A stretch of DNA of 64,000 nucleotides from a bacterium. Its GTDB lineage: Bacteria > Patescibacteriota > Minisyncoccia > Moranbacterales > GWC2-37-73. A program made the translations under genes and the position numbers. The stretch is taken from assembly GCA_003251635.1 (NCBI GenBank), contig QKEW01000011.1:39411-103410 (forward strand), written 5' to 3'. Under the pieces are notes generated by a model, which was given only the letters and a program-made list of their open reading frames with translations, was not told the DNA's origin and did not search any database. Of the stretch, positions 8,139 through 61,182 are shown in pieces. Position 1 is the first letter of the stretch, and every line of letters starts with the position of its first letter.

Positions 8139-9557
8139 TTGATAAAACTATTTATGAAATCAGAAAAATTTTTTACACCCAAAAAAATAATAATTTTGGT
8201 GATTTTGGTCGCAATTTTCTTTGGCGGTTTTTATTTATTTTCCTATGCCAAAGAAAATAAAAAAACTATCGCTATCAGTTCTTTGGCGGTTTTGAAAAGT
8301 ATTTCCAAATTTTTACCAATCGAAAAGGATACTAAAAAAGAAATTGAAGCTCTCAATACTTTGGTTGAAAAGTTTACCGCCAAAGATGATCAGGAATATT
8401 CTTTCTTGCTTTTGCTGCAAAATAACATGGAGTTGCGACCGGGTGGCGGATTTTTGGGTCAATATGCGGTAATTAAAGTTAAGAATGGAGAAGTGGTTTC
8501 CAGTTTTTTCGAGGACGCTAACTTGCTCGATCAACGTATAACCGCCAGAGTTACTCCACCTTGGCCCCTTACTCAGTACATGCAAATTAAGAAATGGAAA
8601 TTTCGTGACTCTAATTTTTCACCAGATTTTCCGACTAATGTGGAGAAGGCTAAATATTTCTATCGTCTTAGTGGACGCTCCAGTGATGGTTTTGATGGGG
8701 TGATTGCGGTTAATGCCACGGTTCTTGATGATGTGTTGGCACTGACCGGTCCAGTCACGATTCCTGGTTACAATGTGACTTTAACCAAGGACAATGCAGT
8801 TCTAAAATTGGAGGAAATTGTGGAAAAAGCTTATTTGTTAAATGAAGACTTGGATACTCAAAATCGCAAAGCTATCATGAAAAGTTTGACTCCAGCCTTG
8901 ATTGAAAAACTTTTCTCTTTGGGTAACGTTACTAAATTGGCGGATTTTGCTCATGAACAAATCAGTAAAAAAAATATTATGATCAACTTTACTGACAGTC
9001 AGTTGCAAAGTTTGATTGAGGATGTGCATTGGGATGGTTCGGTGGCTCAAGATTGGGATGGGGATTATCTGATGGCGGTGGATGCTAATCTGGGCGCGTT
9101 TAAATCGGATTATTATGTTAAACGCTCTATTTCCTATGATGTTGATTTGACGCAGATTAAACCAGTAGCCACTTTGAAAATCACTTACAATCACACTGCT
9201 ACCTATGCTGATTGGCGCACCACTGATTATCATTCTTACTTGCGGGTTTATGTGCCGGAAGGTTCCAATTTGTTAGAACGTTACATGGTGGGTTATCCGA
9301 CCACTCAGACGGAATTGGGCAAAACCTATTTTGGTTTCAAGGTTGATGTTTTGATGAATCATCAATTGGAAACCATGATCAAATATGAACTCCCGGAAAA
9401 ATTTGCCCAACAAGATTATAAGCTTTTGGTTCAAAAACAATCCGGCTTGGATGATGTGCCGATTGAAATTCATGTCAAAACCAATGACGGGGAATTCAAT
9501 CACAGCGGAATTTTGGAAAAAGACTTGAAATTGGAATTTCAGACGGTTCAGGGGTAA
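8139..9557 (+). CDS. DUF4012 domain protein with an N-terminal TM anchor
   Basis: Signature LLLQNNMELRPGGGFLGQYAVIKV (the ELRPxGGF[IL]G motif of DUF4012). N-terminal TM helix IIILVILVAIFFGGFYLF. Confidence 0.75.
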   Translation: MIKLFMKSEKFFTPKKIIILVILVAIFFGGFYLFSYAKENKKTIAISSLAVLKSISKFLPIEKDTKKEIEALNTLVEKFTAKDDQEYSFLLLLQNNMELRPGGGFLGQYAVIKVKNGEVVSSFFEDANLLDQRITARVTPPWPLTQYMQIKKWKFRDSNFSPDFPTNVEKAKYFYRLSGRSSDGFDGVIAVNATVLDDVLALTGPVTIPGYNVTLTKDNAVLKLEEIVEKAYLLNEDLDTQNRKAIMKSLTPALIEKLFSLGNVTKLADFAHEQISKKNIMINFTDSQLQSLIEDVHWDGSVAQDWDGDYLMAVDANLGAFKSDYYVKRSISYDVDLTQIKPVATLKITYNHTATYADWRTTDYHSYLRVYVPEGSNLLERYMVGYPTTQTELGKTYFGFKVDVLMNHQLETMIKYELPEKFAQQDYKLLVQKQSGLDDVPIEIHVKTNDGEFNHSGILEKDLKLEFQTVQG

Positions 9558-22864: not shown

Positions 22865-22900
22865 ACGTACTGACGAACGTACGTACGTTCGTCAGTACGT
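22865..22900. repeat. Perfect 36-bp palindrome ACGTACTGACGAACGTACGTACGTTCGTCAGTACGT (copy 1 of a GTAC/ACGT-rich palindromic element family)
   Basis: It is its own reverse complement. It lies between the mraY stop and the pgk RBS. Related copies sit at 47783-47826 and 58751-58786. Confidence 0.85.
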
Positions 22901-31395: not shown

Positions 31396-33969
31396 GTGAG
31401 CAAGAAAAGAATAATAAAACCTATGTTTGATATTCGTCCGGTTGATCCTAAGACCGGTGATTTGGATTGGGAAAAAATAAGAAAAGTTAGTCAAAATGCC
31501 AACATTAGGAATTTTGTTCGTGAATATAATAAAAGCGCAAAACCCAGCTCGGCTGATCTTTCGAAAAAAAATCTTGAAAATGGTTCCAGGGAAAAAATAA
31601 ATAAAAAAACCTCCAAAGATAATAAATTCCAAAAAATTAAAGAGGTGGCTCGAAATCAGGAGAATATAGATAATGCTCCGCCAGTTCATCCAGCCTTTTT
31701 TGATAAAAAGAGAAAAACAGTCCCAGCTGCCAAATTGGATCGCATAAGAAAAAGGGCGGAAAAAAAGTTTCTAAAAAGTCAAAAAAATCAAGAAAAATTT
31801 GCTCGCAACTTTCATAAAAGAAAAGAGAAAGAACGAAAACGATTTGAAAAACAACTTTCTCACGAAGAAAAGAAGAAAAATAAAAAATTATCCAAGTTTG
31901 AAAAAAAGAACCCTCAAAAAGATTCGATCGGCCGCCTTTTTTTCGAGGACATGGCATTTTCTTTCAAAAAAGAAAGTCGTGGAAACCAAAAGAGTTTTAG
32001 GATTTTTATCGTTTTGCTTTTATTTTTTGCTTTACTGATTGGTTTGCTTTCTTTGGGTTACTGGGGATTAAAGATAAAAAACAACGCTTTAATTTTTAGT
32101 CAGGACGGATATTTCAATATAAAATTAGCCGTAAGTCAGGTTAGTCGGCAAAACTTTGAAGACTCTCAGAAAAATTTTTCACAGGCTGCCATTTCCTTCC
32201 AAAAAGCTTCAGAGGAGGTCGGTCAGATGGGAACTGTCGTGGAAAAAGTTTCTCGTTTCTTTCCCTATCTTTCCAAAGTTTCTTCTGCTAAGAATGTTTT
32301 AGAGGCGGCTAATCATCTTTCTTTGGCTGGAACTAAAATCAACGAAATTGTCGAGGAGGTTTTTGCGCTCAAGAATCTTTCGGATAAAGGACAGATTTCC
32401 ATGTTGGAAGAGTTGAAGAAAGCGACTTTGAAGTTGGAGACAGTGCGATCCGAGTTGTCAGTGGCTCAGAAAAATATCGATTTGGTTAAAGTGGATGATT
32501 TGCCTGAAGAATTTCGAGAAAAGTTTGTTTTACTAAAAACCGAATTGCCAGACATGATCAGTTTGACGGATTCCTTTTTGAATAATGGTTATATTTTTTC
32601 CGACATGCTTGGTAGTCAAGGCCCGCGAAAATATCTATTTTTATTTCAAAACAACAATGAGATGAGAGCTACGGGCGGATTTATCGGAAGTTATGGTCTT
32701 TTGGATATTTCCAATGGTCGAGTGAAAAATTTTTTTATTGACGGGATTTTTAATCCGGATGGACAATTGATTGATAAGGTTGTTCCGCCAGAGCCAATTC
32801 AGAAGATTAGTGCCGCTTGGAGTTTGCACGATAGTAATTGGTTTGCTGATTTTCCAACTTCAGCTCAGGAGGCGATTGTGTTTTACGAGAAAACCGGTGG
32901 TCCAACCGTTGATGGCGTGATCACCTTGACGCCGACAGTTTTGCAAAAATTATTGAAAGTCACCGGGCCAATTGAAATGCCTGACTATGATGTGATTTTA
33001 GATAGTGATAATTTCATAGAAAAAACCCAATATGAAGTTGAAGTTGATTATGATAAAGAAGAAAATAAGCCCAAAGAAATTTTATCTGATCTGGCTCCAA
33101 TATTGTTGGATAGAATTTCCAAAACAACTGAGCCGGAAAAGGTTTTGGGATTTTTGAAGGTTTTATCGGATAGTCTCAAGGAAAAACACATTTTGATTTA
33201 TTCGGAGAATGCTGATTTGCAAAAAATAATTTCCCAGCAGGGCTGGTCGGGTGAAATTCTTGATTCTCAAAAAGATTACCTGAGTGTGGTAAACACGAAT
33301 ATAAATGGATTCAAAACGGATGGAGTTATTGAGGAAGATATTAATCAGGAGGTTGAAATTTCTGATGACGGGTCGATTGTGGATACGGTTTCCATTACGC
33401 GGCGGCATAATGGCGGAGACACTCCCTATGAATGGTGGAACAAGGTTAATGCTAATTATTTAAGAATTTATGTCCCCTTAGATTCGGAGCTGATTAGCGT
33501 TGAAGGCCAAACTCGCGAATTTGTTGAGCCGCCTTTGGATTATGACAAACTGGGATTCAAACGAGACGAAGCGGTTCAGCAAGAAGCAGATTCTATTTTA
33601 CTCGACGAGCAAACTAACACGCGAATTTATCAGCAAAATGGCAAGACGGTTTTTGCTAATTGGACTTATGTTAGTCCAGGAGAAGAAGTAACAGTGGTTT
33701 ATAAATATAAATTACCTTTCCGTCTTTTTTCAGCCATGTTCAATTCTTCCTTAAAAAATCAGGTTGATTCCTACTCATTATTAGTGCAAAAACAATCCGG
33801 TAGCTTGGGAAGTGATTTCAATTTGAATTTAACCTATCCTTCAAACTATCAAATTGATTGGACTCAACCGAATAATTCTTCTCAGGAAAGTCAGACTTTT
33901 TCATTGACTGAAAAGCTGGATATTGATAGATTTATCGGAGTTGTTTTTGAGAAAGATTTGGAAAATTAA
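31396..33969 (+). CDS. DUF4012 domain protein with a long lysine-rich cytoplasmic N-terminal tail and a TM anchor
   Basis: DUF4012 signature LFLFQNNNEMRATGGFIGSYGLLDISNG. Residues 40-190 are highly basic (KKRK.., KEKERKRFEK.., KKKNKKLSKFEKK). TM helix IFIVLLLFFALLIGLLSLGYW. GTG start; the ATG at 31423 is an alternative start. Confidence 0.75.
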   Translation: MSKKRIIKPMFDIRPVDPKTGDLDWEKIRKVSQNANIRNFVREYNKSAKPSSADLSKKNLENGSREKINKKTSKDNKFQKIKEVARNQENIDNAPPVHPAFFDKKRKTVPAAKLDRIRKRAEKKFLKSQKNQEKFARNFHKRKEKERKRFEKQLSHEEKKKNKKLSKFEKKNPQKDSIGRLFFEDMAFSFKKESRGNQKSFRIFIVLLLFFALLIGLLSLGYWGLKIKNNALIFSQDGYFNIKLAVSQVSRQNFEDSQKNFSQAAISFQKASEEVGQMGTVVEKVSRFFPYLSKVSSAKNVLEAANHLSLAGTKINEIVEEVFALKNLSDKGQISMLEELKKATLKLETVRSELSVAQKNIDLVKVDDLPEEFREKFVLLKTELPDMISLTDSFLNNGYIFSDMLGSQGPRKYLFLFQNNNEMRATGGFIGSYGLLDISNGRVKNFFIDGIFNPDGQLIDKVVPPEPIQKISAAWSLHDSNWFADFPTSAQEAIVFYEKTGGPTVDGVITLTPTVLQKLLKVTGPIEMPDYDVILDSDNFIEKTQYEVEVDYDKEENKPKEILSDLAPILLDRISKTTEPEKVLGFLKVLSDSLKEKHILIYSENADLQKIISQQGWSGEILDSQKDYLSVVNTNINGFKTDGVIEEDINQEVEISDDGSIVDTVSITRRHNGGDTPYEWWNKVNANYLRIYVPLDSELISVEGQTREFVEPPLDYDKLGFKRDEAVQQEADSILLDEQTNTRIYQQNGKTVFANWTYVSPGEEVTVVYKYKLPFRLFSAMFNSSLKNQVDSYSLLVQKQSGSLGSDFNLNLTYPSNYQIDWTQPNNSSQESQTFSLTEKLDIDRFIGVVFEKDLEN

Positions 33970-47782: not shown

Positions 47783-47826
47783 GTCAGTACGCACGTACTG
47801 ACGAACGTACGTACGTTCGTACTGAC
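47783..47826. repeat. GTAC/ACGT-rich compound palindrome (copy 2): GTCAGTACGCACGTACTGACGAACGTACGTACGTTCGTACTGAC
   Basis: It shares the 28-nt core ACGTACTGACGAACGTACGTACGTTCGT with copy 1. Its outer arms GTCAGTACG and CGTACTGAC are reverse complements of each other. Confidence 0.8.
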
Positions 47827-48155: not shown

Positions 48156-50006
48156 TTACTCTACATCATCCACATAGTAAACCAAAATAGAGGTGCCGAT
48201 TTGATAGCGGGGTTGATATTGAGTGATCCAGCGCCAAGACTGCTCGTCTGGTTTTTTCATGGTTCCATCGCTATTGAGGCGGGTGTCATAGATGCTGCCT
48301 TGAAGTTGGTTGACGCTGACTGCGTACCAGCCATTTTCCAGCGGTCGCTTGCTGTCCCACCAATCAATGAAACGATCTCCCAAATAGAAGCGCGGATTGC
48401 CACCACCAAAATAATTCAAGCGGATCTGGTCAATTTCAGGATGTTGATTTATGAAGGTTACAAATCTTTCCAAATCTTGGCCCCAATCAGCGTTGGAGTC
48501 GGTGACGTAGTGGTAGCCATTTTTTGGTCCGCCGGCTAATTCATTGAAATAGGATAGATAATATGGATAGGCCATAAGAGTTTCAGAAAGAATCCAGATA
48601 AGCAGAAATCCCAACACGTATTTGAAGAAAAATAATTGATGTGGTTGGAAGCGTGTGAAAAAATCGTGGATTTTCTTGGCCAGTAAGATATAGATGAAGG
48701 GAAAAATTGGAAAGAGGTGGCGCAAGCCAATGTTGAGATTGCCGGTAATGCTCAAATAAGAATAGACGACGATGAAGCCAAACAGAGTGTATTCAACAAC
48801 GTTGGAACGAAGCCAAGACAGAACTCTTTTTCCGTTGGTATGCAAAAAGTCCTGGGTCTTGAGATGGATCTTGGAAAAAATTTGCCAAAGGGTGAAAATG
48901 GTCATGGCGATGATTAGAATCAGCAAAGGCAATGTTTCTTTGAGAATAAAAACAGTTGGGAAGTAAGCAGGGAAGGCGTTGTCGGAAACTTGGCCAATAA
49001 AGTAGGCGCCGTTGCCGCCAGCCACGCGCTTGAAAACCATGCCCATGCCCAGGACATATTCAGCCATTGGTCGCAAGCTCGAGTGGTCATTCATGGCCAA
49101 CATCAAATCGCGAGCCCTGAGACTATTTGGATTGGAATCATTGGCTGGAAAATAGAAATTGATAGTTTTTTCAAATACGACCGGATCGGTTTTATAGGTA
49201 TTGGGCAGATAGACCAACCAAACCAAAACCATAGAAACAGCAAAAGCTACCAAGCCTTTTCCTAGGTAAGAGAACCAAACCCGGATTCTCTTTTGGTTGG
49301 CGTTGATTTTTTTTATCAACGGGTAGCCGACTAAGATTAATCCGAAAATCGGCAAAGTGGTGATGGAGGAAAATTTAGCCACGTGCAAAAGTCCCCAAAA
49401 TATTCCGCCCACCAGGGCATTTTTCCAAGTCGGATTTTTGATGAATTTGAGGAAATAATAAAAAGAAAAAGTTAAAAAAGCCATGACGCCAATGTCAGTG
49501 GTGACATAGTGGTTGTGTCCCAAAACATTTGGGTCAAGCGCATAGAAAAATAAAGCCAAAAGTCCAGCCAAAACCCCAGCCAATTCTTTGACCCACTTGA
49601 AAATAAACAGTCCGGCAATCAAAGAAATCAGCACGATTGGCAGGCGTGACCAAAAAAGAATCGCGTCTGGATTGTTGCCAGCCTCCCAAAGCAAATACTT
49701 GCCGGCATTCCATTGACCAGTATCATTGAGTTCATTCTGCCAGAAGCTTAAATTGGTATCAAAATTCAAGTTTAGAAATAGTAAAGGCAGAGCAGCTAAA
49801 TCTTTGATGAGGGGTGGATGTTCGGGATTGAGGCGCATGTCGTGCTGGGTTAAGTAGGAGTAGCCAGCCGGGATGTGGGCGATTTCGTCAAAAGTAGCAC
49901 TGTCGCTGGCGGCATTGTGCAATGAAACCACAAACATAAAAGCCAGTAAGGAGAAGACGATTTTCCACTGATGTTTTTTGAGCCAATCCTCGATTTTTTC
50001 TTTCAT
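48156..50006 (-). CDS. Membrane glycosyltransferase, GT-C fold (ArnT / PMT_2 family, GT39/GT83-like)
   Basis: First-loop motif DEIAHIPAGYSYLTQHDMRLNPEHPPLIKDL is typical of the ArnT/PMT family. More than 11 TM helices plus a C-terminal soluble domain. Confidence 0.75.
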   Translation of the reverse strand: MKEKIEDWLKKHQWKIVFSLLAFMFVVSLHNAASDSATFDEIAHIPAGYSYLTQHDMRLNPEHPPLIKDLAALPLLFLNLNFDTNLSFWQNELNDTGQWNAGKYLLWEAGNNPDAILFWSRLPIVLISLIAGLFIFKWVKELAGVLAGLLALFFYALDPNVLGHNHYVTTDIGVMAFLTFSFYYFLKFIKNPTWKNALVGGIFWGLLHVAKFSSITTLPIFGLILVGYPLIKKINANQKRIRVWFSYLGKGLVAFAVSMVLVWLVYLPNTYKTDPVVFEKTINFYFPANDSNPNSLRARDLMLAMNDHSSLRPMAEYVLGMGMVFKRVAGGNGAYFIGQVSDNAFPAYFPTVFILKETLPLLILIIAMTIFTLWQIFSKIHLKTQDFLHTNGKRVLSWLRSNVVEYTLFGFIVVYSYLSITGNLNIGLRHLFPIFPFIYILLAKKIHDFFTRFQPHQLFFFKYVLGFLLIWILSETLMAYPYYLSYFNELAGGPKNGYHYVTDSNADWGQDLERFVTFINQHPEIDQIRLNYFGGGNPRFYLGDRFIDWWDSKRPLENGWYAVSVNQLQGSIYDTRLNSDGTMKKPDEQSWRWITQYQPRYQIGTSILVYYVDDVE

Positions 50007-50022
50007 AATCTTTTATTATATT

Positions 50023-51591
50023 TTAATTTTTTATTTCCCAAAATTTGTCCCCAGGAAAAAATTCGTATTCAAAAACGGAGGCTTGAGGATAGATGGCTTG
50101 AACTTTTTCAATAACTTCTTCATATCTTTCGCCCATGAGAATCGCAAAATTATTTTCAATTTGGAAATTGGAATCTAGAAATTCCTCTTTGTTTTGATAG
50201 GTAATGTTGGGTAAATCGGGATTGAGGAATTTGACCGGAATCCTTTCCATGTTGGGGGTGATCAGGAATTTGGAAGTTTGCGGATCCAAAGTTTTGATGT
50301 AATAGGCGATGTCTTTGAAATTAGCGTTAAAAGAGCCGTGTTGTTTGGGATTATCTTTGAAAAAGACGAAATATTTGATCGGATTGAAAAGGCCGATGAA
50401 AATAAAAGAACCGACAAAAAGGGAAATCAGGAAAATTTTCAGTGAAACATAATTTTGATCAGATAATTTTTTCAAAATCCAAAGAAATGGCACGGTGGCC
50501 ATGATCATAACAACCGGTTGGGTTCCGATGGCGCGCAAGGCGTGAGGCAAACCTTCGGCGGTCATGAATTCCGGTGCAAGCATTCCAAAAAACCAAGCTA
50601 ATAAGAAAAAATAGAGATAGAGTTTTTCATTGTGGACGTCATGTCGAAAACGCAGCCAAAGCAACTGCAAAGCTTTTCCAATCAGATAGATTAGGCCGGT
50701 CAGGAAAGCGGCGCCCATGATTGGATCCAGGATTGGATAGGGCGGGTAGTTGTGACGCCAATTTTGATCGCCCCAAAAATTATATTTAGCCAAGCTTAGA
50801 CCCAGACTGCGAAAAGCGGTTTGAATCAAATGACCCTCATTCATTTCGGGTGAAAAAATTGAGATTGAGGCTGAGCGCGAACTGAGATATTCCGGATGAA
50901 CGTGAAATTCCCAAAGGATTGGTGCAAGAGTTATGAATGTGCCGATAGAAAAAATCAGCAGTTGTTTCCAGAAAGTTTTCAGGAAATCTTTTTGAGTGAT
51001 CCACATGAAAAACCAAAGAACCAAAATAATGGCCGGAGCAATACGAAAAGCAATGTAGGTGTGAAATCCGAGCCCGAAAATCAAACCGCTGATTAGAAAT
51101 GGAAAAATTTTGCGAGTGCGAAAACCTTTTAGCAAGAAGTAAAAAGAAAAAGTCAAAATGGTCGGAATCATGATAGCTCGGAATCCGATGCGCGAAAAAT
51201 TGATAGCCCAATAAGAAAAGGCCATCAAATAGGCACTAATGAGACCGGCGCGCGGGCTTTGAAAAATTTCTTTGGAAAGAAGATAGACTCCCCAGACCGC
51301 CAAGGTGCCGCAAATGATTGAGCAGATTTTCAAAGCCAAAATTGTGTTGCCAAAAAAATGAATTCCCAGAGCGATCAGATTTATGAAAAGTCCTTCGCGC
51401 CCGTTGTTGTCTGTGTAGAAAAGTTGGTAATTGCCACTGGCAAGAGCGTGTTGGGCATCAATGCCATTGACAGCTTCGTCAGGATAAATTCCGCTGGGAG
51501 CATTTTCGATATCAAAAATTCGCAGACCGAAAGCGGTAACCAAAATCAATAAAAGCAAGGAAAACTGCCACAAGCGGAAACTTTTTTTCAT
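50023..51591 (-). CDS. Membrane glycosyltransferase, GT-C fold (ArnT / PMT_2 family), paralogue of 48156..50006
   Basis: DEAVNGIDAQHALASGNYQLFYTDNNGREGLFINL first-loop motif. Polytopic. Confidence 0.7.
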   Translation of the reverse strand: MKKSFRLWQFSLLLLILVTAFGLRIFDIENAPSGIYPDEAVNGIDAQHALASGNYQLFYTDNNGREGLFINLIALGIHFFGNTILALKICSIICGTLAVWGVYLLSKEIFQSPRAGLISAYLMAFSYWAINFSRIGFRAIMIPTILTFSFYFLLKGFRTRKIFPFLISGLIFGLGFHTYIAFRIAPAIILVLWFFMWITQKDFLKTFWKQLLIFSIGTFITLAPILWEFHVHPEYLSSRSASISIFSPEMNEGHLIQTAFRSLGLSLAKYNFWGDQNWRHNYPPYPILDPIMGAAFLTGLIYLIGKALQLLWLRFRHDVHNEKLYLYFFLLAWFFGMLAPEFMTAEGLPHALRAIGTQPVVMIMATVPFLWILKKLSDQNYVSLKIFLISLFVGSFIFIGLFNPIKYFVFFKDNPKQHGSFNANFKDIAYYIKTLDPQTSKFLITPNMERIPVKFLNPDLPNITYQNKEEFLDSNFQIENNFAILMGERYEEVIEKVQAIYPQASVFEYEFFPGDKFWEIKN

Positions 51592-51758: not shown

Positions 51759-54674
51759 ATGAGCGAAATGTCTGGCGATAATTTAGATAATAAAGATGAA
51801 AAAAATAAAAAACCAGATGGAAATTCTGTTGAGGCTGTTGATGCGGAAATGATAGGGGATGTTGAAAGTGGCCCTGACAAAGAAGAATCCAGAGAAGATC
51901 CGATGGAAAAATGGAAAGACGACGCTGGTCTTTATTTGAAACCGGAAGATTTTGATAAGTTAGCGAGATTGCTTGGCGACAAATTTAATTGGAAAGAATT
52001 TTTTGATTTCTTTACGAGCCGGACAAATGACAAAATAAGAACATGGGAGAAAAAAAGGACAAAAATAGAGAATTACGACAGCTTTAAGCTTGATGTTGCT
52101 AGCCTCATGGAAGAATTTTTTAGGGGTAAGGTAGAAAATGTTGGTGAATTTTTAGTTGAAAATAAAGACTTAATGGATAAACTAAAAAATCTTGTTAAGG
52201 AAAAACATCCCTCCGCAAATACATTGAAAGCTTTTTTTGAGGGGAGAATAAAAAACTATGACTCTAGAAAAGAATTAATTAAAAAGGATGATTTTTTCGG
52301 TTTGGTTGGAAAAATTTTTCCAGGTATATTTGATGATTTTGAAGAAAGTGTAATAGAAGAGTTTTTGAAAAGTCAAGAATCTGGCACTAGCGATAAAATT
52401 AAAAGTCTTTTAGAAGATTATTTTGCTAAGAATTTAGGAAAAAATCCAAACAAGGAAGCGGCTACAAAATGTGTTCAAGATTTTTGTCGTGATCCTGAAA
52501 TTCTTACGAAAATAAAGGAGGAAATTTCACCAGATGATTCAGAAGTTTTTGGAGCTATCAGTGATTTAATTTCTGCAATTGGTCAGAAGGATATTCAAAA
52601 AGTTTTACTTCAACATAAAGAGTTAGAAAAAGATAAACAAAAGAAAGCTGAACCTGAAGATAAGCCAAATCAGGATGGTCAACCAAATTCTCGGCAGCCA
52701 GTTCAGGAGCCGGGAAATGCGCCAGCCTCGAATCCAAATCCAGATCCGATTCAACAATCGCAGCCTAATTCGCAACCGCAACCGCAAGAAGCGCAACCGC
52801 AAGAAACTCAAATTCAAGAGCCGCAACCGCAGGAGCTTCGACCACAGCAGCCAGCTCGAGTGGAAAGTTCCAATCCAAATCCTGAACTAAGTCCGGAGCA
52901 GGAAAAAGCCAAGCACGAGCAGGAGCGAAAAAATTTGAAGGCTGATATTGAAGCTACACGCCAAGACTATCTCGAAGCTTATTACCAAAAAAGAACTTGG
53001 ATCGGAAAATTCAAAAGCGCTCTTTGGGATAATGTCAGTCCGGTGGAGGCAGAAAATCGAAGCAGGGATGTCATGCGTCAGGACCTGGACTTTTTCAAAA
53101 GCAGATATGACCAAGCTCTCAAAAAATATCAAGAATTTTTGGTGGAGGAAGCTAAGATAGATGATCCTGCTTCTGCTAGTGGTGGAAAAATGATCGACAA
53201 CAAAAAATTTGCTGAGATTGCTAAAATTTTCAATCTGGAAGCTAAAGTAGAATTGGCTAAAAATTATAATGAGCTGAAGGCTGGCAAAATAGAGGGCCGG
53301 GTTCTGGGGTGGCTGCGCAAAGCTTCCAAGGGATATGGTGAATTAGTCAAAAAGCATCCTGTTATGGTTGGGCTAACTTCTTTGGCCTTAGTTTTGACTA
53401 ACCCAGCCTTGGGAGTTGGAATTGGAGGCAAAGCAGTTTCGGTTTTGTTTGTTAAAAAAATGTTAGTGGCTGGTTTGACTGGCGGAAGAGTTTTGGATTG
53501 GGCAGAGGAAAAAACCCAAAAAAATCGAGAAAAAGAAGCTAAAAAAGATGAGGCAGACTTAGAAAAAGAATTGAAGGGAGTTAATAGTTTAGAGAGCTTA
53601 ACTAAGCTTAATGAAAAACTGGATGGAATTATTTCGCAAGATAAGAACAGAATTGTTGATACGGCTAAAAATAAACAGCTCCGCAACATTTTGGCCGGAT
53701 CTGCGGTTGGTGGAACTTTGGGATTTTGGATCTTAAATCAATATGCGGAGAAATTTTTTGGAGCCGATCTTCACGGTAGTAAGGAGATTTTGAGATCCAA
53801 ACTGGAAACGGTGACGATAACTCAAGGCAGTGGAAATGGAACCAGTTTTGAACAGGTCTTAACTAAATATGTTAGAGGCAGGGAGTCTTGGTTGGTTGAT
53901 AAATATCCGGATTTGAAAGGGCTAAACACACAGCAAATTGTTGCGCGTATATCTTCGGATTATCGAATTGATCACCACGGCGGATATCCCGGAATGCTTA
54001 ATTCGGGTGATAAATTGAAAATTAATTTTGATTTTCAACAGGGTCAACCTTTTGAGAACGGAATTAGGATTGACGTAGTCAGGGGTGAAGCTCCGGTTAA
54101 TTTGGCAGCTGAGACGGCTCAAGATCATTCAGTTCACGAGGCAGTCTCAAATCATGCTAACAAGGCAGCTGATTTAGATGGACAAAAACCATCGGCGACA
54201 ACAGAAAAAGTAGCTAATGGTGCAGATTCAAAAATGCATTTCAAGTCGGAAGCTCTTAATGGCAAGCATCAGGATTTTCTACGTTGGAGTGACACTGTTT
54301 CCTGGCAAGATTATAGTCGGGGTTTTGGCAGAGGGATTATGCCGGATAGCTATTTATTGAGTGAAGCAAAAGCCTTGAAAGTTTTGGAAGGAAACCCTGA
54401 AGAATGGGGTAAATTTAAAGAGTTTGTGCGCAGAATTAGATATGATATTAGCGGTGAGAATCTAGCCAGATGGCAGCTAATTGGGGATATGCCAGCAAAC
54501 AGAATTGCTGCGATTGAGGACCATTTGTCTGGAAGTGGAAAAGAATTGTTTGAAAGATTTATGAATGACCCACACACTCCAAAGCCATTAAACGGGGAAC
54601 CGTTCAGTTATTATTTGCGTCGGGCGGTTCGAGTTTCTCTAGAGCAACGCAGAGCCGAATCATTAGCTGGATAA
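51759..54674 (+). CDS. Large hypothetical protein (971 aa) with an acidic N-terminus, a Pro/Gln-rich tandem-repeat linker and two internal hydrophobic segments
   Basis: Residues about 300-365: PNSQPQPQEAQPQETQIQEPQPQELRPQQP, which in DNA is CAACCGCAA-type repeats at about 52660-52860. Hydrophobic stretches VMVGLTSLALVLTNPALGVGIGG and AGSAVGGTLGFWIL. No catalytic motif recognised. Confidence 0.55.
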   Translation: MSEMSGDNLDNKDEKNKKPDGNSVEAVDAEMIGDVESGPDKEESREDPMEKWKDDAGLYLKPEDFDKLARLLGDKFNWKEFFDFFTSRTNDKIRTWEKKRTKIENYDSFKLDVASLMEEFFRGKVENVGEFLVENKDLMDKLKNLVKEKHPSANTLKAFFEGRIKNYDSRKELIKKDDFFGLVGKIFPGIFDDFEESVIEEFLKSQESGTSDKIKSLLEDYFAKNLGKNPNKEAATKCVQDFCRDPEILTKIKEEISPDDSEVFGAISDLISAIGQKDIQKVLLQHKELEKDKQKKAEPEDKPNQDGQPNSRQPVQEPGNAPASNPNPDPIQQSQPNSQPQPQEAQPQETQIQEPQPQELRPQQPARVESSNPNPELSPEQEKAKHEQERKNLKADIEATRQDYLEAYYQKRTWIGKFKSALWDNVSPVEAENRSRDVMRQDLDFFKSRYDQALKKYQEFLVEEAKIDDPASASGGKMIDNKKFAEIAKIFNLEAKVELAKNYNELKAGKIEGRVLGWLRKASKGYGELVKKHPVMVGLTSLALVLTNPALGVGIGGKAVSVLFVKKMLVAGLTGGRVLDWAEEKTQKNREKEAKKDEADLEKELKGVNSLESLTKLNEKLDGIISQDKNRIVDTAKNKQLRNILAGSAVGGTLGFWILNQYAEKFFGADLHGSKEILRSKLETVTITQGSGNGTSFEQVLTKYVRGRESWLVDKYPDLKGLNTQQIVARISSDYRIDHHGGYPGMLNSGDKLKINFDFQQGQPFENGIRIDVVRGEAPVNLAAETAQDHSVHEAVSNHANKAADLDGQKPSATTEKVANGADSKMHFKSEALNGKHQDFLRWSDTVSWQDYSRGFGRGIMPDSYLLSEAKALKVLEGNPEEWGKFKEFVRRIRYDISGENLARWQLIGDMPANRIAAIEDHLSGSGKELFERFMNDPHTPKPLNGEPFSYYLRRAVRVSLEQRRAESLAG

Positions 54675-54698: not shown

Positions 54699-55016
54699 AT
54701 GGATAATATCAACGAAGATTTGAAAAAAAAGGCTCTCGACCAGTTGGTTGAGGATCTGGGTATGAATGATTTACCGCAAGATAAAAAGGATGAACTTTTG
54801 GCCAAGATATCTGAAGCTTTTTTGGGTCGAATTTTTGTGGAGGTTATGGAAAAAATTGGCGAAGATGGTCGGGATGAATATGAGAAGTTGATGGAAAAAA
54901 ATCCCGAGCCACAGGAGGTGGACAAATTTTTTGCCAGCAAGATTGAGAATTATGATGGATTTGTAACTAAAGTTGCTCAAGATTTTAAAGAGGAATTAAC
55001 CAATGATCAGTTATAA
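54699..55016 (+). CDS. Small acidic hypothetical protein (105 aa)
   Basis: Tightly spaced between the 971-aa gene and the next acidic protein. High D/E content. Confidence 0.45.
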   Translation: MDNINEDLKKKALDQLVEDLGMNDLPQDKKDELLAKISEAFLGRIFVEVMEKIGEDGRDEYEKLMEKNPEPQEVDKFFASKIENYDGFVTKVAQDFKEELTNDQL

Positions 55017-55034: not shown

Positions 55035-55469
55035 ATGGAACCAGTAGTAAATCAAGATCCGAAAGAATCTTCCGAAAAAATTGAATTTAAGATGGAAACT
55101 TTGTCTGATGAGTCTCCAAATAAAGAAATTTTTGCTGACGAAAAAGAAAAGGTTTCTGAGAAAAGTTCGGCGGAAAAGGATGCGGCCTACAATCAAATCC
55201 TTTCCAAGCTTAGTGACGATGATGATAGTGATGATAAAAAAGGTTCCGGAGATGTGATCGGTGATGCTGAAAAAGCTTCGCAAAAAACTGACGCAGCTTC
55301 GCAAATTCAGCACTTGGTGGACGTCGCTTCAGTTAAAGGCGTTGTGCACGCGGTTAAGGTGGCGCGACATTTGGAAGATAATTATGTGCTCGATGCTTTT
55401 CATGATAAGTTGATGGCTGATGAGCTGCATGATGCTTTGGTGAAAAAGGGTTTATTGAAAAATTCCTAA
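55035..55469 (+). CDS. Small acidic hypothetical protein (144 aa) with a poly-Asp/Ser stretch
   Basis: SDDDDSDDKKGSGD low-complexity region with a conserved-looking C-terminal helical segment. It immediately precedes the P-loop ATPase. Confidence 0.45.
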   Translation: MEPVVNQDPKESSEKIEFKMETLSDESPNKEIFADEKEKVSEKSSAEKDAAYNQILSKLSDDDDSDDKKGSGDVIGDAEKASQKTDAASQIQHLVDVASVKGVVHAVKVARHLEDNYVLDAFHDKLMADELHDALVKKGLLKNS

Positions 55470-55511: not shown

Positions 55512-57980
55512 ATGGATTTTTTTGATTTTAATTTGATTCTGGTGCCACTCTCAATTTTATTGGCTTTCGCTACTTTTATTGTGGGCGGACTTTTGGTTTT
55601 GAAGAGCTTTTTTGGTTTTCGAGGTGAGATCAGTCGTTCGGTCAATATGGATCTGGAAATGGTCAAAATCGCCAAGGTTTTTCGAAACAAAAAAGAGCAC
55701 GAAAATCCAGAGACTTGGAAGGAAGAGATTGGAGCCATGGAGCAACTCCTAGGGACGTTAGCTAATATGAAAGATAAGTCCTCCATGATCCGTCATTTTT
55801 TCTACGGCAGTCCCCATGTGAGTTTGGAACTGGCTCAGCCGGCTAATAGTGAAGAGATCCTTTTCTATTTAGCGGTGCCAAAAAGATTTCGCGAAAGTAT
55901 TGAAAAACAGATTCATAGTTATTTTCCGGAAGCGTCTATTGAAAAAGTTTCTGATTATACGATTTTTTCTCCCGGTAGTTTCACAGCCTGTGCTACACTG
56001 GGCTTAAAAAACACTTTCGCTTTGCCGGTGGTCACTTATGAAGATATGGATGTTGATCCTCTCAGTGAAATTTCCAACGCTCTGAGTAAATTGCATGATT
56101 TTGAAGAGGGAGCAGTGATTCAATTGGTTTTGCGACCGGCTGGAATTTCTTGGCGAACCAAGGGTCGGGAAATTGCCCATAAGATGCAACAAGGCAAGCA
56201 GCTTAAAGATGCCTACAATAGTTCGTTTCTTTGGGATTTGGGCAAGGATGTGGTAAAAACCATGCAAGCAAAACCAGGAGAAATGGTTAAAAGTCCAGAG
56301 TCTGTCCAATTAACTCCGGAGGAGCAAGAATTAGTCAAAGATATTGAAAGAAAATCCAGCAAAGTAGCTTTTCGGGCCAATGTCAGAATTTTGGCTTCAG
56401 CTAAAACTCAGCAAAGAGCTGACGATATTTTGTCGCATTTGGAAAATTCTTTTTCCCAGTTTGAAAATGCCGGAGTCAATCATTTCACTATTCGAACTCG
56501 AACTAAAGACAAGAAAATTGCTTTTGATTATATCTTCCGTAATTTTAATGAAGAAAACGCCATGATTTTGGGAGTGGAGGAAATTGCCAGTATTTTTCAT
56601 TTTCCAATTTCTACTACCGAAACTCCAAAAATCAAATGGCTTAAGGCTGGTGCGGCTCCGCCTCCGCCCAATGTTCCCAAAGAAGGTTTGCTTTTGGGTT
56701 ATAATGATTATCGCGGACTCAAGACGGATATTCGCATGACGGATAATGATCGGCGCCGACATCTCTATACTATCGGTCAAACTGGAGCGGGGAAATCAAA
56801 TTTCTTGCAAGAACTGGCCAAGCAAGATGCTAAGAATGGCAAAGGATTTTGTTTTATTGATCCGCATGGAGACGCAATTGAAGATATTTTGACCGCTATT
56901 CCAAAGGAACGGGCTGAAGATGTGATTGTTTTTGATCCTTCGGATGTGGAGCGTCCTTTTGGTTTGAATATGTTGGAATATGATCCAGCTAATCCTCAAC
57001 AGAAAACTTTCGTAGTCAATGAGATGATTGGAATCTTTGATCAACTCTATGATTTGAAAGCGACCGGTGGTCCAATGTTTGAACAATACGTGCGCAATGC
57101 CATGCTTTTGATTATGGAGGATCCTGAGTCCGGTTCAACTTTGATGGAAATTTCCAAGGTTTTGGCGGATGAAGAATTTCGTCGCATGAAACTGTCCAAA
57201 TGCACCAATCCGGTAGTGCGAGATTTTTGGATCAAGGAAGCGGAAAAGGCTGGGGGCGAGGCGGCTTTGGCTAATATGGTGCCCTACATTACTTCAAAAT
57301 TGACTAGCTTCATTTCCAATGACATGATGCGTCCGATTATTGCTCAACAAAAAAGCACTTTGAATTTTCGCGAAATCATGGATACCGGTAAGATTTTATT
57401 GGTCAAGCTTTCCAAAGGGAAGATTGGCGAAATCAACGCTCATCTGCTCGGTATGGTGATTGTGGGCAAGATTTTGATGAACGCTTTGGCTCGAGTGGAT
57501 ATACCAGAAAATCAGCGGCGGGATTTTTATCTTTATTTGGATGAGTTTCAAAATGTGACTACGAATTCAATTTCGCAGATTCTCTCGGAAGCTCGTAAAT
57601 ATCGTTTGTGCCTGGTTATTGCGCACCAATTCATCGGACAGCTTAGTGAAGAAATTTCCAAGGCGGTTTTCGGTAACGTTGGTTCAATGTGTGTTTTTCG
57701 AGTCGGTCCGGAGGATGGGGAATTTTTGGAAAAGCAGTTTTCGCCGGTTTTTGCAGCCGATGATCTGGTGAATGTTGATAATTACAATTGTTTCACTAAA
57801 ATGTTGATTAATAATGAACTTTCCAAGCCATTCAGCATGAAAACCTATCCGCCGACTGAAGGTGATCAAAAAATTGCCAATTATCTCAAGGAACTTTCAC
57901 GCCTCAAATATGGCCGTGACGCCAAGATTGTGAACATGGAAATTATTGAGAGGACCAAATTGGCGGAGAGTGTTAGATAA
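55512..57980 (+). CDS. Membrane-anchored FtsK/HerA-superfamily P-loop ATPase, most similar in motif layout to type IV coupling proteins (VirD4/TraG/TraD-like)
   Basis: Two N-terminal TM helices. Walker A RRHLYTIGQTGAGKSNFL, followed by CFIDPHGD. Walker B FYLYLDEFQNV. Q/arginine-finger region RLCLVIAHQFIGQL. 822 aa. Confidence 0.65.
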   Translation: MDFFDFNLILVPLSILLAFATFIVGGLLVLKSFFGFRGEISRSVNMDLEMVKIAKVFRNKKEHENPETWKEEIGAMEQLLGTLANMKDKSSMIRHFFYGSPHVSLELAQPANSEEILFYLAVPKRFRESIEKQIHSYFPEASIEKVSDYTIFSPGSFTACATLGLKNTFALPVVTYEDMDVDPLSEISNALSKLHDFEEGAVIQLVLRPAGISWRTKGREIAHKMQQGKQLKDAYNSSFLWDLGKDVVKTMQAKPGEMVKSPESVQLTPEEQELVKDIERKSSKVAFRANVRILASAKTQQRADDILSHLENSFSQFENAGVNHFTIRTRTKDKKIAFDYIFRNFNEENAMILGVEEIASIFHFPISTTETPKIKWLKAGAAPPPPNVPKEGLLLGYNDYRGLKTDIRMTDNDRRRHLYTIGQTGAGKSNFLQELAKQDAKNGKGFCFIDPHGDAIEDILTAIPKERAEDVIVFDPSDVERPFGLNMLEYDPANPQQKTFVVNEMIGIFDQLYDLKATGGPMFEQYVRNAMLLIMEDPESGSTLMEISKVLADEEFRRMKLSKCTNPVVRDFWIKEAEKAGGEAALANMVPYITSKLTSFISNDMMRPIIAQQKSTLNFREIMDTGKILLVKLSKGKIGEINAHLLGMVIVGKILMNALARVDIPENQRRDFYLYLDEFQNVTTNSISQILSEARKYRLCLVIAHQFIGQLSEEISKAVFGNVGSMCVFRVGPEDGEFLEKQFSPVFAADDLVNVDNYNCFTKMLINNELSKPFSMKTYPPTEGDQKIANYLKELSRLKYGRDAKIVNMEIIERTKLAESVR

Positions 57981-58197: not shown

Positions 58198-58599
58198 GTG
58201 CCAAATAAAAATGAATTGGTTGGTGTTGGATCTTTTGTTTATTTATGTGAGCAAAAGATAATTCTTTACATAGAAGAAGCAACGCGGGAGAAAGACGGAA
58301 TTTTTGCCAAATGTTTGTCGTTGGATAATTTTGAGCGACACGAGTTGTCTTTTTCGTTTCCAAAAGGCGAAAGGTGCAAATCGGGAACCGTCCTAGTTTG
58401 TCATTTTGAAGGAGTGAAAATGGCATTGGATTGGGAAATTAAAAAAATAAGGCGAGGTAGGCTAGGCCAAGTGGCCGAGAAAAATCTACCTAAATATGTT
58501 GCAAGATTAAATGAGTTTTTTATCAACAAAAACTTAGCGAAAAAAAATTTATTTTCTCTGGAGATTCTAAAAAAAGATTTATATCAACCTGTTTGGTAA
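58198..58599 (+). CDS. Hypothetical protein (133 aa)
   Basis: ORF followed by the terminator-like hairpin AGCGATTCGGG-aaaaa-CCCGGTCGCT and a T-run at about 58690-58730. Confidence 0.4.
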   Translation: MPNKNELVGVGSFVYLCEQKIILYIEEATREKDGIFAKCLSLDNFERHELSFSFPKGERCKSGTVLVCHFEGVKMALDWEIKKIRRGRLGQVAEKNLPKYVARLNEFFINKNLAKKNLFSLEILKKDLYQPVW

Positions 58600-58750: not shown

Positions 58751-58786
58751 CACGTACGTACGTCCGTCAGTACGTTCGTACGTACG
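58751..58786. repeat. GTAC/ACGT-rich palindromic element (copy 3): CACGTACGTACGTCCGTCAGTACGTTCGTACGTACG
   Basis: It shares a 20-mer with copy 1 at 19 of 20 positions (ACGTACGT[T/C]CGTCAGTACGT) and is flanked by self-complementary CGTACGTACG units. Confidence 0.75.
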
Positions 58787-58810
58787 AAAATAAAATCATT
58801 AAATTAAAAA

Positions 58811-58881: not shown

Positions 58882-61182
58882 TTATTCTGGCTTGAATGCC
58901 AAGATGGTTTTATCTAAGTTTAGGTAGATTTTTTTATTTTCTTCGTCGAAGGCCAGGTTTTGGGCTTGACCAATTTTTTCGTTTTGGAATTGTCGGACAA
59001 TTTGACCGCTGCTGTTAAATTCTATCAAGCGGGAGTTTTCGCGATCTAAAATAAAAATTCGCGCTTCATCTTCACTGGCAATGACTTGATCGAAATTGAT
59101 TAGTGTTTGAGAATCTTCAAATTTGAGGTTTGTTTGGCGTCCCTGGGATAATTGGAGTAGTTTATTTTTTTGAGCCAATAGCAGATTCTCACTAACTGCC
59201 AAATCTTGAGTTGAGTTCAAATCAATCTTGTCCTTGAGCCAGTCAGTTTTTTGTCCAAAGCCGCCTTCAGCTCGCGGAAAGCGGTAAATTTGATTGTTTT
59301 GAGCATCTAACAAATAAATATAGGTCAGATAGGTGGCGATGAATTTTATTTTACTATCGGAAGGAATATCAATCGATTCGGTCTTGATTTCTTTGGATAA
59401 GGGGGAAAAGGAAATGAGCTGGTTTTGATCAGTTAAGGTGAAAACCAAATTTAGATCAGGCATGAATGTGGCGGCTTGAAACTTTCCGCTTTCAGCGGGA
59501 AAATCAAAAGTCTGCCAATTTTTTGAGTTTTGATCAAAAATAGATACGCTTTTGTCGTTGACCGCCAAAAGAGAATCTTGGGGGGCAAATATTTTTTTTG
59601 CTGCAATTGAAGTCGGAATGCTTTCGAAGTTTGAATCTTCTAGAAAAGCCATGTTTTTTTCCTGGTCATATTTTGAAGTTGGATTCGTGGCGGTTGGCGC
59701 GGTTTCGATGTTCTCAATGGAGTTGGAATTTTTTTGTTCGGAATCGGATCGGGAGAAAAACATTGGCAAGAAAATGATTAAGGCCAATGCGATCAAGGCA
59801 TAGAGCTTTTGTTTTTTACTCAGTTTTAGAAATAAATTGGCGATTTTTTTCAGGTGAGGCAAGGCGAAGCTGGAAATTTTTTGAAAGAAGCGAGTCAGTT
59901 TTGTGGTGATTGGATCGGATTTGAATTGCAGATTGAAAGATTGGATCGAGGGTGTTTCAATGCCATTTATTTTTTCAGATGATTGTGGATGACCGGGCTT
60001 TTCTTGTTGGTAGGACTCAAAATCGGTATTTTTAGTTTTTTTTTCTAACTCGGAAAAATCATTTTTTGTTTTGAGTGAATCAAGTTTATTTTTTGCAGCC
60101 TCAATATGGGATTTGTAGTCATGAGAGTAGACGTCTTGGAAAAACTTTTTGGTTTTGCGTCTGAGCCAATTGAATTGTTTGCGTAGGGAAATTTTGAGGT
60201 TGTCGAAAAAATTGAAAGTAAGCTCTTGGAATATTTGCCAGTTTTCATTCAAGCGACTTTCTTTATTTTCACCAGATTTGTTTTCATCCGGACTTTGAAT
60301 GTAGATGTGGCCAGTTTTTTTGTCGGTATATTCAGCGGCTTCTTGTTTCGAAATAGCATCTTCAATGGTTTGTTCCCGGTAATTGGGATCGCCATTTTCA
60401 CTCTGTCGGTTTTGTACAAAAGCTTTTTGACTAAAAACATTCAAGTCGTCAGCTTTCTTTTGGGATTTATTTGCGCCAAAGGTTGCGGACGCTTCATTCT
60501 TGGGCGGCTCACTGATGTCAACAACCACGGTGCCGGCCAGATCCAGTTCGTTCGTTAGGGCTGTTTTGAGGAATTGAACAAACTTTTCTTTTTCTAGGCG
60601 AGCCAAGTTTTTCTTTAATTCCTTTATAGAAAGGATTTGAAAAATATCATCAGAAGTTATGACTAGTCTGTCATCTTTTTCCAGGCGGCCACTGGAAACA
60701 TTGATGAAAGTTTCCAAAGGATTGAGTTTTTCGGGTGATTCCTCGGCTAGATCGGCTGTGATTTCTGTTAGAAAGTTATTGCGAAAAAGTAAAATCTTAG
60801 CTTTGCCGGTAACGGCAAAATGCAAGTTGTTTTTTTCCAAAACACAAATAGCACTGTCTAGTTTTCCTAGCCACTTGATGTTTCCGTGTTTGGCCAGCTC
60901 AGAAAGAGCAAGGTTAACCTTGTTTAGGGCAGCATCAAAGCTTTCTACTACCGGTCTTTTGCTGTTTAAATAATACTCCTTTTTTAAAACGGAATTGAGA
61001 AAATTGACGATATAGGCGCTTTCTTCGCTATATTCGCGAATTTCAAACAATCCAGTCAAGCAGCCCAATTGTTTTTGGGTAATGTTTTCTGGAGCATATT
61101 GAAAAATTTCGATGTAGGGCTTGAGGTTTTTGTTATTAACCACCAAAATAGGGGAAATTTCTTTTTCCATAGTTTGAGTCAC
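58882..61182 (-). CDS. Hypothetical bitopic membrane protein with a cytoplasmic degenerate PP2C/SpoIIE-like N-domain, a central coiled/charged region, a TM helix and an extracytoplasmic repeat-like C-domain
   Basis: The N-terminal about 200 aa follow the PP2C block order (..SAICVLEKNNLHFAVTGKAKILLFRNN..ITSDDIFQIL) but lack the metal-binding Asp residues. TM helix LYALIALALIIFLPMFF at about residue 465. 766 aa. Confidence 0.45.
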   Translation of the reverse strand: MTQTMEKEISPILVVNNKNLKPYIEIFQYAPENITQKQLGCLTGLFEIREYSEESAYIVNFLNSVLKKEYYLNSKRPVVESFDAALNKVNLALSELAKHGNIKWLGKLDSAICVLEKNNLHFAVTGKAKILLFRNNFLTEITADLAEESPEKLNPLETFINVSSGRLEKDDRLVITSDDIFQILSIKELKKNLARLEKEKFVQFLKTALTNELDLAGTVVVDISEPPKNEASATFGANKSQKKADDLNVFSQKAFVQNRQSENGDPNYREQTIEDAISKQEAAEYTDKKTGHIYIQSPDENKSGENKESRLNENWQIFQELTFNFFDNLKISLRKQFNWLRRKTKKFFQDVYSHDYKSHIEAAKNKLDSLKTKNDFSELEKKTKNTDFESYQQEKPGHPQSSEKINGIETPSIQSFNLQFKSDPITTKLTRFFQKISSFALPHLKKIANLFLKLSKKQKLYALIALALIIFLPMFFSRSDSEQKNSNSIENIETAPTATNPTSKYDQEKNMAFLEDSNFESIPTSIAAKKIFAPQDSLLAVNDKSVSIFDQNSKNWQTFDFPAESGKFQAATFMPDLNLVFTLTDQNQLISFSPLSKEIKTESIDIPSDSKIKFIATYLTYIYLLDAQNNQIYRFPRAEGGFGQKTDWLKDKIDLNSTQDLAVSENLLLAQKNKLLQLSQGRQTNLKFEDSQTLINFDQVIASEDEARIFILDRENSRLIEFNSSGQIVRQFQNEKIGQAQNLAFDEENKKIYLNLDKTILAFKPE

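Follow-up and report, generated by a model that had tools for sequence, protein, structure and literature searches.

Coupling proteins are the substrate gate of type IV secretion systems (T4SSs). The gene described here lies at 55512-57980 (+) of a 64-kb stretch of DNA (contig QKEW01000011.1, positions 39,411 to 103,410; hereafter the window), a housekeeping stretch of chromosome from a Moranbacteria-type member of the Patescibacteria (candidate phyla radiation, CPR). It encodes an 822-aa ATPase that belongs to the VirD4/TrwB type IV coupling protein (T4CP) family, within the FtsK/HerA superfamily. The product is probably a remotely encoded coupling ATPase, serving a distant chromosomal T4SS and working with a lineage-specific adaptor.

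The ATPase belongs to the coupling-protein family

The four motifs that the original prediction had read in this open reading frame (ORF), GQTGAGKS, IDPHGD, DEFQN and AHQ-x4-QL, are all present and begin at residues 422, 449, 677 and 704. Alignment with 20 diverse relatives, 30-48% identical to the window protein, places every one of them on invariant or near-invariant columns. The last motif is preceded by an invariant SEARKY segment (residues 692-697; R695 and K696 invariant), inside which lies a candidate arginine finger. The features of the gene are listed below, with invariance referring to the 20 relatives.

55512..57980, + strand: T4CP-family ATPase gene (ORF, 822 aa), DUF8128 plus TrwB/VirD4-type nucleotide-binding domain
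55533..55619, + strand: single N-terminal hydrophobic (membrane-anchor) helix, residues ~8-36, from a hydropathy scan
55647..56594, + strand: N-terminal alpha/beta domain, residues ~46-361 (Pfam DUF8128), from the model and Foldseek
56688..57851, + strand: TrwB/VirD4-type P-loop nucleotide-binding domain, residues ~393-780, from Foldseek and the family profile
56775..56798, + strand: Walker A, GQTGAGKS, residues 422-429; G422, G425 and K428 invariant
56856..56873, + strand: IDPHGD, residues 449-454; D450, P451 and G453 invariant; pairs with VDPNGD of TrwB
56997..57341, + strand: all-alpha insertion between Walker A and Walker B, residues ~496-610, from the secondary structure of the model
57540..57554, + strand: Walker B, DEFQN, residues 677-681; D677 and E678 invariant
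57621..57644, + strand: sensor-type motif AHQFIGQL, residues 704-711; Q706 and Q710 invariant

As modelled, the insertion at ~496-610 is equivalent to the all-alpha domain of T4CPs. Three Pfam families score above their cut-offs on the window protein: TrwB_AAD_bind (32.5 bits, cut-off 20.5), TraG-D_C (24.7, cut-off 22) and DUF87 (24.0, cut-off 23.2), the match to the last being confined to the Walker A region. The same three families match 19 of the 20 diverse relatives, and T4SS-DNA_transf matches 8. FtsK_SpoIIIE and AAA_10 are found in 5 and 4 of the relatives, respectively, in both cases weakly (~1e-3); the Pfam search of the window protein itself gave no match to AAA_10, CagE_TrbE_VirB, TraC_F_IV, FtsK_SpoIIIE or the gamma domain. 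NCBIfam returned partial TraD, VirD4-like and CedD matches, all well under their cut-offs. Sequence matches in the PDB rank TrwB, DotL and HerA in this order, and a profile of the family finds TrwB at 4e-8 and DotL at 8e-5. The assignment to the VirD4/TraG-like part of the FtsK/HerA superfamily, made in the original prediction together with a proposal for these profile searches, is thus upheld by the Pfam scores, by TrwB as best PDB match, and by the t4cp1 listing and plasmid homologues described below. Two other members of the superfamily were rejected as identities for the protein: FtsK/SpoIIIE, on the Pfam results just given and the single transmembrane (TM) helix, and the HerA helicase, given the marginal DUF87 score, the rank of HerA structures below TrwB, PADLOC HerA scores of 15-21 bits and the lack of partner genes.

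The family is large, with more than 3,700 homologues and, at E<=1e-30, 5,659 clusters at 50% identity. Among named relatives, the closest are metagenome-assembled genomes (MAGs) of Moranbacteria and Parcubacteria, whose identity reaches 85%. When species-representative genomes were compared, Patescibacteria titles (Moran-, Falkow-, Komeili-, Taylor-, Uhr-, Nomura-, Magasanik-, Kaiser-, Staskawicz-, Azam-, Buchananbacteria and others) accounted for most of the 80 best loci. Titles such as "uncultured Gammaproteobacteria", "uncultured Bdellovibrionales", "Bacillota" and "uncultured Saccharibacteria", borne by a minority of the MAGs, are presumably unreliable pipeline labels. Some family members (P0182-P0193, 1,400-2,000 aa) carry C-terminal extensions of 600-1,200 aa that match nothing in Pfam, and in one (P0206) another P-loop region lies around residues 820-860.

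A predicted VirB4-like domain precedes the motor domain

The full-length AlphaFold model of the ATPase (pLDDT 78.9) consists of an N-terminal helix, an alpha/beta domain (46-361), a low-confidence linker and the P-loop domain (393-780). The N-terminal transmembrane domain of T4CPs typically has two TM helices, and two had been predicted here from the sequence. The hydropathy scan reduces them to a single hydrophobic stretch, and AlphaFold draws one unbroken helix over residues 6-44; relatives have one helix of ~20 residues or none.

The alpha/beta domain coincides with DUF8128 (PF26449), which is precomputed over the N-terminal half of homologues; literature searches returned no papers on DUF8128 or on DUF5663, a family met further below. 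When this domain was modelled alone (pLDDT 81, pTM 0.79) and compared with the PDB by Foldseek, all 14 matches at E<=1e-3 were TrwK/VirB4 chains (E 9e-7 to 2.5e-4), with a TM of 0.40-0.45 for the similarity to the VirB4 (TrwK) fold. The full-length model has full-length VirB4/TrwK as its top match (~900 columns, E 2e-14) and also covers the entire TrwB (E 1e-11, TM 0.61-0.67, target-normalised), followed by Cag-beta and HerA; the complex of Cag-beta with CagZ (8dol) is among the structural matches of the ATPase. Residues ~46-361 are thus predicted to have a VirB4-N-terminal-like fold.

An N-terminal domain of the VirB4 type is not found in textbook VirD4 proteins. Because it combines a predicted domain of this kind with at most one TM helix, the ATPase is not a canonical VirD4. 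With TrwB (R388), VirD4, TraD, DotL and Cag-beta it shares the P-loop domain with its all-alpha insertion, the IDPxGD and DExxN motifs and an N-terminal anchor. It differs from the VirD4-family T4CPs in that the anchor is one helix, or in some relatives none, instead of two; from TrwB in the added N-domain of ~320 aa; and from the VirD4 family, further, in the lack of nearby relaxase and T4SS genes and in a dedicated, fusible acidic partner. With VirB4 (TrwK) it has in common the two-domain layout and, as predicted, a similar N-domain fold, whereas sequence-profile similarity is limited to Walker A.

Plasmid homologues lie in conjugation operons

A tblastn search of annotated plasmids found homologues in 298 records (Streptomyces, Bacillus, Clostridium, haloarchaea and Sulfolobus), matching residues ~100-815 at 24-28% identity. 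Alignment of the family profile with a Bacillus subtilis plasmid protein by hhalign (probability 100%, E 8e-51) extends over 667 columns and both domains at 24% identity. In the 24.7-kb Bacillus plasmid the homologue is first in an operon; a Replic_Relax relaxase comes directly after it, then TcpE, an AAA_10 VirB4 encoded by a gene of its own, and further transfer proteins. In a 65-kb Bacillus plasmid it lies 5′ of TcpD/TcpE and a conjugal transfer protein, and in an Embleya plasmid VirB4 and the relaxase flank it, PrgI/VirB3 being encoded upstream and NlpC/P60 downstream. When the profile was aligned with a plasmid AAA_10 VirB4, hhalign returned a probability of 2.8% and Walker A alone was aligned. 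Because its plasmid homologues sit in conjugation operons, the two-domain protein is a genuine T4CP, belonging to monoderm-type (MPF-FATA-like) systems, and not a VirB4. The T4CP subfamily that it represents is widespread on plasmids of monoderms and archaea and has a two-domain architecture unlike the textbook model based on TrwB.

The plasmid proteins in question are annotated 'DUF87 / T4SS conjugative DNA transfer family' (Bacillus subtilis plasmids of 24-65 kb, Embleya/Streptomyces, haloarchaea). They are full-length homologues and have the same two-domain architecture, save the haloarchaeal ones. The latter, for example in a Natrinema plasmid (L087, 11737-15931), have the DUF8128-like N-domain (382 aa) and the ATPase (1,018 aa) in separate, overlapping, adjacent ORFs, a split that parallels the TrsD/VirB4 split reported for Patescibacteria T4SSs. 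The plasmid genes adjoin a relaxase and VirB4 and have no acidic partner, whereas the Patescibacteria gene stands isolated on the chromosome and is conserved much more strongly.

A 144-aa acidic protein is adjacent or fused to the ATPase

The original prediction had placed the ATPase in a four-gene block with a 971-aa PQ protein and two small acidic proteins. The four genes are indeed co-directional and tightly spaced, with gaps of 24, 18 and 42 bp; those upstream of the ATPase are as follows.

51759..54674, + strand: 971-aa PQ-rich protein, 52% P+Q at residues ~300-365; variable slot
54699..55016, + strand: 105-aa acidic DUF5663 protein, pI 4.3 (DUF5663 24.7 bits, cut-off 23.7)
55035..55469, + strand: 144-aa acidic partner, pI 4.7, directly 5′ of the ATPase

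Comparison of 82 related loci singled out one of these genes. In 28 loci a separate gene directly 5′ of the ATPase encodes the 144-aa protein; in another 26 an in-frame fusion joins it to the N-terminus of the ATPase in a single ORF of 850-1,164 aa. The distribution of the TM helix follows the same division: the helix is present in 27 of the 28 loci with an unfused partner and missing in all 26 with a fused one. The fused partner replaces the membrane helix. In 18 ABY1-type loci the partner slot is occupied by another small protein (cluster c5, ~168 aa), and 17 of the 18 ATPases have a TM helix; c5 was rejected as a version of the 144-aa partner on the basis of an hhalign probability of 0.1%. 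Eight of the other 10 loci begin at a contig edge. The partner has a conserved helical C-terminal core (~KG[IV]..A...[ND]P[HY][IV]LD.FHD.L) and 504 homologues, none with a Pfam domain; Pfam scans of the partners, the fused N-termini, the variable upstream proteins and the long C-terminal extensions gave no match. Neither the 144-aa partner nor c5 was found in the plasmid loci.

Small proteins that act as adaptors or regulators of particular T4CPs include CagZ with Cag-beta, IcmS/IcmW/LvgA with DotL, and TraM with TraD. The 144-aa protein may resemble them in concept, as a small soluble partner reserved for one T4CP, an analogy drawn from adjacency and fusion.

The other two upstream genes behave differently from the partner. 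DUF5663 occurs within 6 kb of the ATPase in 13 loci only, and directly 5′ only in Moranbacteria-type loci; its link with the ATPase is looser and restricted by lineage, mainly to Moranbacteria. For the PQ-rich protein, neither a homologue at the related loci nor a family match was found. The slot 5′ of DUF5663 is hypervariable, holding proteins of 771 and 730 aa in one relative (L001, 4432-8954) and one of 313 aa in another (L003, 8158-9099), with no detectable kinship to one another or to any family. The PQ-rich protein is probably co-transcribed with its neighbours; lacking homologues and family matches, it was dropped as part of the system, of which it is no conserved component. The four-gene block therefore does not hold across related genomes and gives way to a unit of two genes, often of one, in which the 144-aa protein, adjacent or fused, is the only conserved neighbour partner.

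Apart from this pair, unbiased clustering of the neighbours yields housekeeping genes only (spc ribosomal operon, SecY, Adk, Ndk, MBL-fold RNase, DnaX, CysRS). The ATPase tops local conservation, at 67-76% identity against 31-73% for its neighbours. As its identity stays at 70-85% across the whole order, the gene appears to be chromosomally fixed, vertically inherited and under strong purifying selection.

Related genomes encode a T4SS at a distance

The ATPase had been described as standing alone, and this is true of its surroundings: T4SS, pilus and relaxase genes are absent from the 64-kb window, and probes for VirB4, relaxase, TcpE, PrgI and transfer proteins found none within ±10 kb at the 82 related loci. 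A survey by Quinonero-Coronel et al. (2025) counted 5,713 VirD4-type T4CP homologues in 2,918 of 3,035 Patescibacteria genomes, with only 148 of the 5,713 near virB4, and its authors raise possible exaptation (PMC12102498). The survey also reports that T4CP genes are often far from virB4 in ordinary systems, and that the T4SS clusters of Patescibacteria are chromosomal, amid replication and ribosomal genes (PMC12102498).

Four orthologues of the window protein (KKP97585.1, KKP71086.1, KKQ22401.1 and KKQ53622.1) are entered in Table S3 of the survey as T4CPs, with CONJScan profile t4cp1, coverage of 91-94% and the entry 'VirB4 proximity: No' (PMC12102498). The same table lists, for related Moranbacteria genomes, a VirB2/VirB3/TrsD/VirB4/VirB6 cluster 150-340 genes away from the T4CP. 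In GCA_000991325.1, for example, VirB2 is assigned to genes 968-969, VirB3 to 970, TrsD to 971, VirB4 to 972 and VirB6 to 983, and the T4CP to gene 759; two further genomes show a distance of ~210 genes. The family of the window protein provides the best T4CP match in those Moranbacteria genomes, and VirB4 is called on a different gene (PMC12102498, Table S3). Each of the listed Moranbacteria genomes has in addition a second 'T4CP' of lower coverage (t4cp1 60-68% or t4cp2 ~61%), which could be another FtsK/HerA-superfamily ATPase.

The original prediction had suggested a module of a non-canonical secretion or conjugation-like system and had named, as one finding that would speak against it, a full T4SS elsewhere in related genomes with this gene as its canonical VirD4. 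The Moranbacteria relatives carry a T4SS elsewhere and this protein is their best T4CP match, which weakens that suggestion. Because related genomes encode the T4SS at another site, the impression of 'no T4SS' is a matter of distance.

Orphan T4CPs are as a class already catalogued in bulk. The proteins in the survey set are the same as those analysed here; in the available portions of its text and tables, they are counted by a short profile, without the N-domain, the partner, the fusions or the neighbourhoods (PMC12102498). The partner with its fusion pattern and the domain architecture appear to be new.

Proposed role and alternative explanations

We propose that six copies of the ATPase would assemble into an ATP-driven motor on the cytoplasmic side of the membrane, and that this motor would serve the Patescibacteria T4SS encoded elsewhere (VirB2 pilins, VirB3, TrsD, VirB4, VirB6). 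The N-domain of VirB4 docks with VirB3 and VirB8, and the VirB4-like N-domain predicted here might likewise dock the ATPase to the inner-membrane platform of the T4SS. The acidic partner, by analogy with known adaptors, may act as an adaptor or regulator near the membrane-proximal N-terminus, a position suggested by the fact that covalent fusion makes the TM helix dispensable. The cargo, passed between the bacterium and its host cell, would more likely be proteins or nucleic acid than a conjugative plasmid, given that there is no relaxase.

Several observations weigh against this proposal. No T4SS gene lies in the window or within ±10 kb of the 82 related loci, and the functional link to a distant T4SS is therefore one that we infer. 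All the NCBIfam T4CP equivalogs score far below their cut-offs (for example, 30 vs 366 bits); hhalign detected no profile-level similarity to VirB4; and 26 of the 82 relatives have no membrane helix. Furthermore, the survey records a T4CP in more genomes (2,918) than VirB4 (2,417), and the T4CP homologue of Southlakia, possibly of another subfamily, is non-essential though the T4SS is essential (PMC12102498). The genomes marked 'No' for VirB4 in its Table S1 are drafts that still have TrsD (PMC12102498).

Among other explanations, the T4CP and its partner could be an exapted housekeeping motor, acting independently of a T4SS as a translocase or remodelling ATPase in chromosome segregation or repair, or in the uptake of DNA or nucleotides. 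We regard this as unlikely, though a contender to be taken seriously. It would fit the housekeeping surroundings (the spc ribosomal operon, SecY and Adk upstream; Ndk, DnaX, CysRS and RmuC nearby), the rank of the ATPase as the most conserved local gene, the fused forms devoid of membrane anchor and, from the survey, the rarity of T4CPs near virB4, the non-essential t4cp of Southlakia and the authors' own suggestion of exaptation (PMC12102498). None of this separates the two readings cleanly, however, because the T4SS clusters of Patescibacteria sit in a housekeeping context too, and distance from virB4 is common for T4CP genes in ordinary systems. Moreover, the catalytic core, all-alpha domain and N-domain are the same as in plasmid T4CPs, and direct evidence for an alternative substrate is lacking. 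A related idea is that a conjugative coupling protein became a core motor of Patescibacteria with an adaptor of its own, either as a T4SS substrate receptor or as a T4SS-independent housekeeping translocase for DNA or nucleotides; this we put forward tentatively, considering it rather doubtful.

It is quite improbable that the protein is a divergent VirB4 paralogue, that is, an ATPase for assembly or pilus biogenesis rather than a coupling protein. Its size (~820 aa) and two domains are VirB4-like, the full-length model matches TrwK/VirB4 best and the N-domain taken alone matches VirB4 chains only; the resemblance nonetheless does not extend to the sequence profiles, where hhalign aligns no more than Walker A and the VirB4 families of Pfam are absent from the window protein (AAA_10 being weak in the few relatives that have it). 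A genuine, separate VirB4 is encoded in the same operon as the plasmid homologues, and the Patescibacteria genomes in question own both VirB4 and TrsD. Least credible, and very improbable indeed, is that the gene is left over from an integrated conjugative element or encodes a HerA-type ATPase of anti-phage defence. The relatives of known role are plasmid-borne, NCBIfam HerA_antiphage_2 is matched at E 0.02, and PADLOC gave weak matches (mad8 at 41 bits, the HerA models as above), on the strength of which a defence-system role was rejected after the scan. No integrase, relaxase or nuclease/Sir2 partner is found nearby, synteny is stable over many lineages, the base composition matches that of the window, and the degree of identity over the order speaks for vertical inheritance under purifying selection.

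The T4SS is essential for growth on the host in the sole species tested, according to the survey (PMC12102498). If, as in the tentative reading above, the ATPase is the substrate receptor of this epibiosis-essential T4SS, the acidic partner would define the cargo that passes between symbiont and host. The VirB4-like N-domain would also mark the subfamily as a structural link between the VirB4 and VirD4 lineages of ATPases. Patescibacteria account for much of bacterial diversity, and their orphan T4CP is nearly universal; its dedicated, often fused partner, its putative VirB4-like docking domain and the strong purifying selection on it offer handles on what their T4SS transports and how it chooses substrates.

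Other features of the window

The remaining genes of the window include those for ArgRS, an AspRS/LysRS-type enzyme and other tRNA synthetases, MurJ, MraY, enolase, PGK, ScpA/ScpB, RmuC and glycogen-type enzymes, as well as two DUF4012 proteins (472 and 857 aa, at 8139-9557 and 31396-33969). A tandem pair of PMT_2 glycosyltransferase genes (48156-51591, -) shows conserved synteny with the ATPase block among Moranbacteria relatives. No tRNA and no Rfam family was found in the window, and a scan for promoters and terminators gave a signal no higher than background. Base composition is uniform over the window, the ATPase region being like the rest. GC skew is positive in all 2-kb bins (0.12-0.31; positions 1-64000), and the + strand carries nearly every gene, which places the entire window on a single replichore with a strong leading-strand gene bias.

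The 900-bp gap 3′ of the ATPase contains an ORF for a basic protein of 133 aa (58198-58599, +; pI 9.2) with a good AAGGAG ribosome-binding site. It has no homologue among the related loci and no family match, for which reason it was dropped as part of the system; it may be a strain-specific insertion. Just beyond, in convergent orientation, is a gene for a 766-aa protein (58882-61182, -), which matches no family and has a single TM segment at its centre. The same slot in Moranbacteria relatives holds a gene for a protein of 738-874 aa with merely 32-40% identity. Finally, an ACGT-rich, mostly palindromic element of ~35-40 bp, with the core ACGTACTGACGAACGTACGTACGTTCGTAC, is present three times (~22865-22900, ~47785-47826 and ~58752-58787), at gene boundaries or in intergenic DNA; one copy lies ~770 bp 3′ of the ATPase gene. 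A degenerate pattern of the element has 14 matches against 0.01 expected by chance, and the element resembles a REP-like intergenic repeat.

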